Sequence record: NC_028927.1
Direction: 5' to 3' (one strand)
DNA from: Escherichia phage slur02
Length of the DNA: 64,000 nt
In this document: one piece after another, positions 44,889-47,544 of the stretch
How the letters are laid out: each line of letters begins with the position of its first letter
Numbering within the stretch: position 1 is the first letter of the stretch
The notes under the pieces: model-generated
Seen by the model: the letters and a program-made list of their open reading frames with translations, nothing else
Told to the model about the DNA's origin: nothing
Databases searched by the model: none
Program-made: the position numbers and the translations under genes

Positions 44889-45105
44889 ATTGTTTTTCCG
44901 TTAATACAGTAATATCATAGTAACAATCGGAAGAAGTTTTAACTGTGGAAATTTTATTGTCAAAATACTCACGAGTCATTTTATGAGTATAGTATTTTTT
45001 ACCATAAATGGTAATAGGCTGTTCTGGTCCTGGAACTTCTAACTCGCTTGGGTTAGGAAGTGTAAAAAGAACGGCACCAGAAGTATCTTTAAATCGTAAA
45101 ATCAT
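44842..45105 (-). CDS. hypothetical protein (nrdA.2-like)
   Basis: 87 aa. Confidence 0.55.
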
Positions 45106-45962
45106 ATTGCCATTTTCCCTTTAATTGCTGGATGCGATTCATAATTTTCAAGGATAAAATCTTTCGGTTTCATGTATTCAGTTAACCAGTAAAGCTGTGT
45201 TTCGGTGTCACAATTTCCAAACTCTATAGGCCAATCAATTTTAAGTTCACACAGTTCTTTAGGCTCACGACGTAAAATTTCTTTACATTGCTCAGTATGA
45301 TTCATATAGATGTGAGTATTACCACCAGAAAATATCAAATCTCCTGGGATAAGATTACACATCTTAGCCACAATATGCGTCAAGGCAGCGTACGAGGCAA
45401 TGTTGAATGGCAAGCCCAAGAAAACATCTACACTTCTTTGGTACCATTGTAAATCAAGATAACCATTACGCACATTAAACTGATAGAACATATGACAGGG
45501 CGGTAATGCCATTTGATTGATTTCAGCTGGATTCCATGCTGAAACGATTTGACGTCGATCAGTTGGTAATTTTTTAATACGATCAATAGTTTCAACTAAT
45601 TGATCCACACCACCGAAATCACGCCATTGTTTACCGTATATAGGACCAAGTTCACCACTATGATATCCTAGGTCTTTAGCCTGGTTTTCATAGTTATCGT
45701 CCCAAATAGTTTTACCTTGAATAAGACTACCATGAGTGCGAAGACGTAAATCATTAACATTGGTAGAACCGGAAATAAACCATAAAAGCTCAGCAACGCA
45801 TGCATTCCAGGCGAGCTTCTTAGTTGTTACTGCAGGAAAACCTTTGGTTAAATCCCAACGCAATTTAGTACCGAACAGAGCAATTGTTCCTGTGCCCGTT
45901 CGGTCATCGGTTTCATAGCCATTTTCAAAAATGTCTTTAATTAAATCTTGGTATTGTTTCAT
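45102..45962 (-). CDS. td: thymidylate synthase, uninterrupted (no group I intron)
   Basis: 286 aa continuous ORF with the active-site region [11 protein letters not shown]. Confidence 0.95.
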
Positions 45963-46006
45963 TTAGTACCTTATATAAATTATAATACATTTTATGAAGC
46001 TAATAA

Positions 46007-46354
46007 TTAATACGGTTTAGCATCAAATTTTCTCTCAATTTCAGGCGTGAAATATAATTCTTTACCGCGTTTGGAAAAGCGACCAATAATATGATAATTA
46101 TTCTCATCAAACGTAATATTACCAATATCCATAGCTTTCAACCAAATATCGATATTTCTATCCAGCTTTATGTCAAAATTCCAATACGGAGAACTATTAC
46201 CGAAAATACTACAAGCGGATTCAGTGAAACAGCTACTATAAATCTTGTCTTTAGGAACTACTAATTGATAGACACCTTTAATAAACTGAGGACCTTGCCA
46301 TTTTGGCTGTTTCTCGTCTTTTTCTAATAGAATAGGGTAATAATTAAAATTCAT
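46007..46354 (-). CDS. hypothetical protein inserted between frd and td
   Basis: 115 aa ORF with no recognisable motif. Confidence 0.6.
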   Translation of the reverse strand: MNFNYYPILLEKDEKQPKWQGPQFIKGVYQLVVPKDKIYSSCFTESACSIFGNSSPYWNFDIKLDRNIDIWLKAMDIGNITFDENNYHIIGRFSKRGKELYFTPEIERKFDAKPY

Positions 46355-46373
46355 ATTTCCGCCACGCGTTATT

Positions 46374-47200
<827 letters not shown>

Positions 47201-47211
47201 ATTATCTCCTA

Positions 47212-47544
47212 TTAAAAAGGATCAGGAACATATCCGCTAGCTTTAATCATTTTAATTAACGTTAACATTCCTTTGTTAACTGCTCGTGAGATTTCATCAA
47301 AAACTTCATCACTAAAAAGTTCTAACACGCCCTTCTGAACTTTTAATTTACAGCCAACAATTTCTTCATCGCCTATAGTAAATTCATTACCACCAATTCC
47401 ACCGAAAAACTTAATTACACCAGTTAACTGTCTTCCACGAGAATATGGGTCGTGTGATAAAGTAATATGAGTCACCCCGGGTACAGTTTTAAATTGGCAG
47501 CGAATATTTACTTGTGAAATTCCAGTTACATGAATATCAGACAT
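47212..47544 (-). CDS. hypothetical protein (frd.2-like)
   Basis: 110 aa. Confidence 0.6.
   Translation of the reverse strand: MSDIHVTGISQVNIRCQFKTVPGVTHITLSHDPYSRGRQLTGVIKFFGGIGGNEFTIGDEEIVGCKLKVQKGVLELFSDEVFDEISRAVNKGMLTLIKMIKASGYVPDPF

Follow-up and report, generated by a model that had tools for sequence, protein, structure and literature searches.

A conserved small gene at the frd-td junction of T4-like phages and its probable loss from phage T4

Introduction

The T-even phages carry free-standing and intron-encoded homing endonucleases such as I-TevI, MobE and the Seg proteins. Their genes are small, lie amid the genes of nucleotide metabolism and are missing in some relatives. The td region of T4 hosts mobile DNA of this kind, namely the I-TevI intron and mobE. 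The frd/td junction of T4 was reportedly described by Purohit and Mathews in 1984, with an ATGA overlap of 4 nt between the two genes. With regard to the protein, the small beta-barrels of the OB fold (SSB/RPA, S1, cold-shock and telomere-end-binding proteins) are the comparison named for the fold predicted in this study. Ligands of OB folds are bound on a face made up of the beta1-beta2 loop and the beta4-beta5 hairpin.

The window analysed here is the whole stretch of 64,000 nucleotides from Escherichia phage slur02 (NC_028927.1). A 115-aa ORF is located between frd and td in this window, and it shares the three features of the T-even homing endonuclease genes mentioned above. The initial annotation took the ORF for an extra insertion, possibly a mobile remnant or an alternative cargo of the td hotspot. 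In this study, the distribution, the junction alleles, the selection and the predicted fold of the ORF were analysed and the possible origins and roles of its product were compared.

Results

The frd-td junction of the window

The features of the junction are collected in Table 1. The position, strand, length and description of the ORF given by the initial annotation were correct. Its frd-td region is 100% identical to that of Escherichia phage slur04 (LN881729 / NC_042130, Tequatrovirus), in which the 115-aa ORF is already annotated as a CDS. A weak Shine-Dalgarno-like sequence, GGCGGA, lies 3 nt ahead of the ATG of the ORF, within the spacer that follows frd. No Rfam family reached the gathering score in the 64-kb window, so there is no group I intron. 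The td gene of T4 (NC_000866) has the I-TevI intron, whereas that of the slur02 window does not. The absence of an intron from td, the direct overlap of frd and td in T4 (4 nt, ATGA, in NC_000866) and the lack of a gene between them in T4 had all been pointed out beforehand and were confirmed.

Table 1. Features of the frd-td junction in the window and in the compared loci. Coordinates without a prefix refer to the window; those with an L prefix refer to the collected locus of that number.
Feature	Coordinates	Strand	Remarks
115-aa ORF	46007..46354	minus	ATG start, TAA stop; 13.7 kDa, pI about 7.7; from the ORF listing
frd (dihydrofolate reductase)	46374..46955	minus	neighbour upstream of the 115-aa ORF
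td (thymidylate synthase)	45102..45962	minus	single unbroken 286-aa frame, intronless; downstream neighbour
nrdA.2, nrdA.1, nrdA	beyond td	minus	gene order in the window
frd-ORF spacer, 19 nt	46355..46373	minus	AATAACGCGTGGCGGAAAT
ORF-td spacer, 44 nt	45963..46006	minus	ends in the td ribosome-binding site AAGGTACTAA
31-nt module	45972..46002	minus	TAGCTTCATAAAATGTATTATAATTTATATA; MotA-box-like AGCTTCA, then TATAAT/TAATTT -10-like element
Direct repeat, copy 1, 12 nt	46369..46380	minus	TAAATGAAATAA, across the frd stop codon; spacing 415
Direct repeat, copy 2, 12 nt	45954..45965	minus	TAAATGAAACAA, across the td start codon
81-aa ORF	46955-47200	minus	between frd.1 and frd
DUF7247 gene	47212-47544	minus	between frd.1 and frd
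frd.1-frd spacer of T4, 71 nt	L002:7692-7762
Orthologue of Mosigvirus Shf125875	L010:1201-1548
42-aa cassette, phage ACG-C40	L007:752-953		same junction as window 45963-46373
Extra small ORFs in the frd-td interval	L004:2059-2490, L005:2790-3140, L011:1826-2182, L012:3332-3670, L013:3344-3685, L015:2245-3288

Distribution and synteny of the ORF

The 115-aa protein was searched with tblastn against 50,697 phage records, and homologues were found in 580 of them. Those with at least 90% identity occur in 361 of the 580 records, which include T6, RB6, RB27, RB32, RB68 and Shfl2 as well as hundreds of Tequatroviruses of Escherichia, Shigella, Yersinia and Salmonella. The other 219 records hold homologues below 60% identity and belong to T4-like phages of Klebsiella, Enterobacter, Erwinia, Serratia and Citrobacter. 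The frd-td junction of T2 contains an insert of 418 bp, equal in size to the ORF-bearing one.

The gene order was inspected by opening the loci of Klebsiella phage K65_evo10, Erwinia phage Cronus, Klebsiella phage phi1_146055, Serratia phage WSPA, Mosigvirus Shf125875, Kanagawavirus Q7622 and four uncultured contigs. In every locus opened, that is the window and 11 others from at least seven lineages, the homologue sits immediately between frd and td. Orthologues directly follow frd in Mosigvirus, Kanagawavirus, Roskildevirus, Muldoonvirus, the Klebsiella T4-likes and uncultured relatives. At least seven T4-like lineages other than that of the window have diverged orthologues (23-48% identity) after frd, often together with tandem paralogues. 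The frd stop codon overlaps the start codon of the homologue in most relatives, which implies translational coupling; the slur04-type Tequatroviruses have short spacers instead. Several genera also have other, unrelated small ORFs within the frd-td interval. The initial annotation had itself named the conservation of an orthologue at this position across many T4-like phages as the observation that would speak against its reading. Such conservation is what the 580 records and the synteny revealed, and the idea of an extra insertion could not be upheld.

One of the records with the ORF (99% identity) is PV654520.1, a 142-kb sequence named Pseudomonas phage vB_PSGBLB0006 with Pseudomonas aeruginosa as its host. 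It looks like a Tequatrovirus, and this suggests a mislabelled host or a contaminant.

Three alleles of the junction

The initial annotation regarded the frd-td region as variable, and this variability took the form of three alleles. In Tequatrovirus-type genomes, the junction holds the 115-aa ORF (361 records), a 42-aa cassette (147 records) or nothing, as in T4 (32 records). The empty T4-type junction was counted by a 34-mer spanning the frd/td overlap. About half of its 32 records are T4 isolates or laboratory derivatives, and the remaining ones are RB55, RB59, vB_EcoM_112, HY03, SG1, G28, F1, FN, JEP6, FL18, FL12 and G2133.

An alignment of slur04 with T4 showed a single indel of 415 bp, with near-identical flanks up to the two 12-nt direct repeats. 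The repeat region was also aligned with T4, F1 and CJY920. When the 415 bp between the repeat copies were removed in silico, the T4 junction with its ATGA overlap was obtained base for base. The 9-mer TAAATGAAA within the repeats is a common motif of gene junctions and is present 9 times in the window, where 3.5 copies would be expected. Therefore, the repeats alone give no direction to the event, and it is the distribution across genera that does. By parsimony on this distribution, the frd/td overlap of T4 is best read as a derived state, which arose by a 415-bp deletion through the 12-nt repeats. The empty junction was also found with a divergent td allele (CJY920), and thus the loss may be recurrent or may have been spread by recombination.

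A similar situation appears on the other side of frd. Two small genes that lie between frd.1 and frd in the window, the DUF7247 gene and an 81-aa ORF, are missing in T4. The frd.1-frd spacer of T4 begins with the ribosome-binding site and the ATG of the DUF7247 gene, GAGGAAAATATTATGT. This start appears to be the fossil of a second deletion just upstream of frd. Small genes would accordingly have disappeared from T4 upstream as well as downstream of frd.

The alternative allele is a 202-bp cassette with a 42-aa ORF (MTPKQYLKGERSLGFTHKAKQMVKLGYKPNFAKYPSTYSWMN), which replaces the 115-aa ORF in phages such as ACG-C40 and Dhakavirus JS98. The family HMM of the 115-aa protein was run against the ORFs of the loci collected at that stage, ACG-C40 included, and gave no match to the 42-aa protein. 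Phapecoctavirus-type genomes of roughly 150 kb encode proteins related to the 42-aa protein at about 51% identity. Therefore, the 42-aa ORF looks like a roaming mini-gene.

In a spread sample of records, some carriers of each of the three junction alleles had the td intron and others had none. Both the ORF and the intron are present in T6, T2 lacks only the intron, and T4 lacks only the ORF. Loss of the ORF by I-TevI co-conversion was rejected since all three alleles occur with and without the intron. The presence of all allele and intron combinations implies that, over a stretch of about 550 bp, recombination has been frequent or homing has recurred. The polymorphism of the Tequatrovirus junction is explained by deletion and cassette swap.

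Transcription signals

The 31-nt module in the ORF-td spacer fits a relaxed pattern of middle promoters, GCTTYA-N11-13-TANNNT, which has 16 matches in the window against 7.4 expected. It is cleanly missing from the otherwise collinear spacer of Shf125875 (Mosigvirus). A simple sigma-70 scan did not pick up the module, and the promoter and terminator scans performed no better than on shuffled sequences. It is possibly an insertable middle promoter of td, and is regarded as a candidate only. No terminator-like site between frd and td rose above the shuffle background.

Selection, divergence and composition

The dN/dS value of the 115-aa ORF against its Mosigvirus orthologue is 0.05 at a dS of 0.71. 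Among the pairs with estimable, unsaturated dS, the values range from 0.035 to 0.17. For the uncultured relatives with 63-66% identity, dN/dS is about 0.1; their dS is close to saturation or beyond it, and for some pairs inestimable. From these values, the 115-aa ORF is evidently a real gene under strong purifying selection. The identities of the ORF and of Frd to those of slur04 are 63/49, 47/49, 36/45, 31/48 and 23/33%, and those of Td are 73-82%. The identity of the ORF thus falls alongside that of Frd, which fits vertical co-inheritance. The GC3 content is 27.6% for the ORF, 28.9% for td and 26.8% for nrdA. A foreign origin by composition was rejected because the GC3 of the ORF is neighbour-like.

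The orthologue of Mosigvirus Shf125875 is 93% identical to that of slur04, higher than the flanking Frd (84%) and Td (87%). The ORF may have been exchanged between Mosigvirus and Tequatrovirus. A 2-nt difference (AA) makes the frd gene of Shf125875 longer by 12 codons, and its 3' end overlaps the start of the ORF. In the homologous alignment, the bases of the 19-nt spacer of the window correspond to the 3' end of frd in Shf125875.

Protein family and predicted fold

The 115-aa protein matched PHROG 1928 with an E value of 3.1e-36, where residues 4-111 cover profile positions 2-125 of 126. All of the 12 orthologues and paralogues tested matched the same PHROG. A Pfam search of the 115-aa protein returned no family at E<=10, and a search of 24 family members at E<=1 found neither a nuclease nor any other consistent family. 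The remark in the initial annotation that the protein has no HNH or GIY-YIG motif agrees with the Pfam result. NCBIfam and PADLOC models gave no match to the protein and its relatives, and the sequence and profile searches of the PDB gave nothing beyond noise, such as dynein and a designed coiled coil. With HMMER, 1.84 billion representatives were searched exhaustively and only 23 clusters were obtained, nearly all of 95-116 aa. A profile search of 5.8 billion proteins yielded 26 clusters and a word-indexed search with the single protein yielded three. Neither a functional name nor a Pfam domain was found among those 26 clusters and three matches. A literature search under the various labels of the ORF found no mention of it, and its sequence is not among the genes listed in those supplements of two systematic accessory-gene screens that could be consulted.

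Q16, W19, G91, F93, K95 and G97 are invariant in the family alignment that includes the paralogues (A5). The same residues are invariant in alignment A3 save F93, which is nearly so. They belong to two conserved motifs, Q-x-x-W after strand 1 and a G-x-F-x-K-x-G hairpin near the C-terminus. The structure was predicted by AlphaFold with an alignment of 24 sequences, which gave a pLDDT of 90.1 and a pTM of 0.83; a run with 4 sequences gave a pLDDT of 61. The elements of the model are beta strands at 6-12, 27-34 and 62-64, a helix at 68-77, and beta strands at 80-82, 86-96 and 99-104. The predicted order beta1-beta2-beta3-helix-beta4-beta5 would fit a small barrel of the OB type, to which one short strand (80-82) is added. 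Solved OB domains with significant structural similarity were not found. Therefore the term OB-like small beta domain is used as a working description of the model, not as a statement of family membership.

Two copies of the family stand in tandem in the frd-td interval of several other T4-like genera. The extra copies tested have an insertion of roughly 20 aa (W-A-L-V...P-T-I-E-Q-Y-K-R-N-P) right after Q-x-x-W. One interval (L015) contains three small ORFs of 148, 106 and 95 aa, of which the 95-aa ORF was assigned to the family.

The labels of the CDS in public records are in conflict. In MZ501066, MZ501065, OK272473, OK272476, OK274152, MW749000, OR125554 and MN580668, the same CDS is called putative homing endonuclease, putative dihydrofolate reductase or putative glucose-1-phosphate adenylyltransferase. 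The latter two labels were rejected, as the profile searches gave them no support. One GenBank note calls the gene RB32ORF229c-like. A small ORF next to it bears the name putative prohead core scaffold protein in some related records (teqsoen, teqdroes, IsaacDaniel).

Discussion

The 115-aa ORF is best described as an ordinary conserved accessory gene, already known as a feature and named a hypothetical protein in hundreds of GenBank records. It is very probably a real ancestral gene that T4 deleted. The ORF looks like an insertion because T4 is taken as the reference. The main value of this study is the correction of that view, since a common ancestral gene appears inserted once T4 serves as the reference. 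For the annotation of phage genomes, the labels homing endonuclease, dihydrofolate reductase and glucose-1-phosphate adenylyltransferase on this CDS should be removed. The study also defines a small, well-conserved family with a confident predicted structure that is tightly linked to the phage DHFR.

With respect to its origin, it is very probably a vertically inherited accessory gene of the enterobacterial T4-likes (Tevenvirinae), placed within the string frd -> td -> nrdA. The ORF is probably present on the same transcripts as frd and td. This presumed co-transcription is proposed because no terminator-like signal stands above the background from frd to td. Its product would be a putative binding module without enzymatic activity, which has a nucleic acid or a protein as its partner and modulates nucleotide or DNA metabolism rather than performing a step of it. 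In the model, the beta1-beta2 loop and the hairpin of beta4 and beta5 carry the conserved aromatic and basic residues. The net charge of the protein is about neutral (pI 7.7), which would be unusual for a strong nucleic-acid binder. The binding-module mechanism is put forward tentatively, and we would not yet count on it. The combined statement, a conserved ancestral gene lost by T4 together with the binding-module mechanism, appears likely to us. The gene is dispensable, as T4 and about 180 further records do without it. If its product acts in nucleotide metabolism or in host defence, the family would be a modest addition to the biology of T-even phages.

The gene may serve anti-defence or host takeover, occupying a variable slot, neutralising a host factor and being kept or dropped according to the hosts that the phage meets. 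One site with three states, namely the 115-aa ORF, an unrelated 42-aa cassette or nothing, speaks for such a slot, and the 42-aa alternative itself roams, being present in Phapecoctavirus genomes. The tandem paralogues of other genera with their variable loop insertion point in the same direction, as do the dispensability in T4 and the small, domain-less and uncharacterised nature of the protein. However, the gene is strongly constrained and evolves no faster than the adjoining frd. Its position after frd is fixed across genera and not patchy. In addition, no PADLOC model matched it, and it does not appear in the gene lists of the two screens, as far as their supplements reach. An anti-defence role is thus conceivable but on the whole unlikely.

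Another explanation places the protein closer to its neighbours. It could be a partner of DHFR and thymidylate synthase or of their mRNA, either as an adaptor of the dNTP-synthetase complex or as a translational modulator of td. The linkage with frd is strict in all lineages, the overlaps imply coupled and near-stoichiometric synthesis, and the ORF co-diverges with Frd. The OB-like order and the conserved aromatic and basic residues of the predicted model would also suit such a partner. On the other hand, DHFR and TS of T4 function without the 115-aa protein, and a cursory comparison revealed no obvious compensating change in Frd and Td of ORF-less phages. The unrelated small ORFs in the interval of several genera suggest a permissive site, not an operon logic. 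Therefore, we consider a partner of this type improbable. Its most specific form would be an unrecognised, DHFR-coupled, OB-like protein of the thymidylate cycle, working as a DHFR-TS tether or as an RNA-binding modulator of td and frd. The coupling to frd across genera and the co-divergence with Frd are compatible with this form, which we hold to be a long shot. If it were true, the loss in T4 would have hidden the family from sixty years of T4 genetics.

The possibility that the ORF is a degenerate or free-standing homing endonuclease at the td hotspot, and thus a mobile remnant or cargo, was also weighed. The mobile DNA in the td region of T4, the 12-nt direct repeats flanking the ORF, the polymorphic frd-td site and the label in MZ501066 and MZ501065 can be cited for it. 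Against it, no HNH, GIY-YIG, LAGLIDADG, NUMOD or other nuclease domain was detected in this protein (E<=10) or in 24 relatives (E<=1), and the protein is predicted to be one compact 115-aa domain. The ORF is full-length and under purifying selection, and so it is not decaying. It shows synteny and co-divergence across genera with a native GC3, and its presence is independent of the td intron. Terminal inverted repeats were not found around the ORF, so transposon-like ends were rejected as well. A homing gene would be expected to occur sporadically, at odds with the phylogeny of its flanking genes; the position after frd is instead fixed and the identity tracks that of Frd. The suggestion of a mobile remnant or alternative cargo in the initial annotation is therefore not supported, in view of the missing nuclease domain, the synteny, the purifying selection and the independence from the intron, and such an origin is very unlikely. 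The idea that the frame is open by chance, in a spacer that codes for nothing, has the weak Shine-Dalgarno sequence and nothing more in its favour and is hardly credible against a frame kept at 23-97% protein identity in hundreds of genomes, a dN/dS of 0.05 and a confident predicted fold.

The conserved accessory gene proposed here can finally be set beside the known systems. The 115-aa protein differs from I-TevI, MobE and the Seg proteins in that it has neither a nuclease nor a DNA-binding motif and is at most half the usual size. It also differs from them in being, by all indications, vertically inherited and co-diverging with frd. The ACG-C40-type cassette has the same boundaries as the ORF, from the frd stop to the td ATG, and abuts td translationally. 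It differs from the ORF in its length of 202 bp and its unrelated sequence. The T4 junction differs from that of the window by the lack of 415 bp, which hold the ORF and a promoter-like spacer. The closest system is the PHROG 1928 CDS of, among others, T2, T6, RB6, RB27, RB32 (RB32ORF229c), RB68, Shfl2 and slur04. It is the same gene at the same position, and its Tequatrovirus versions are 97-100% identical to the protein of the window, with no difference to separate them.
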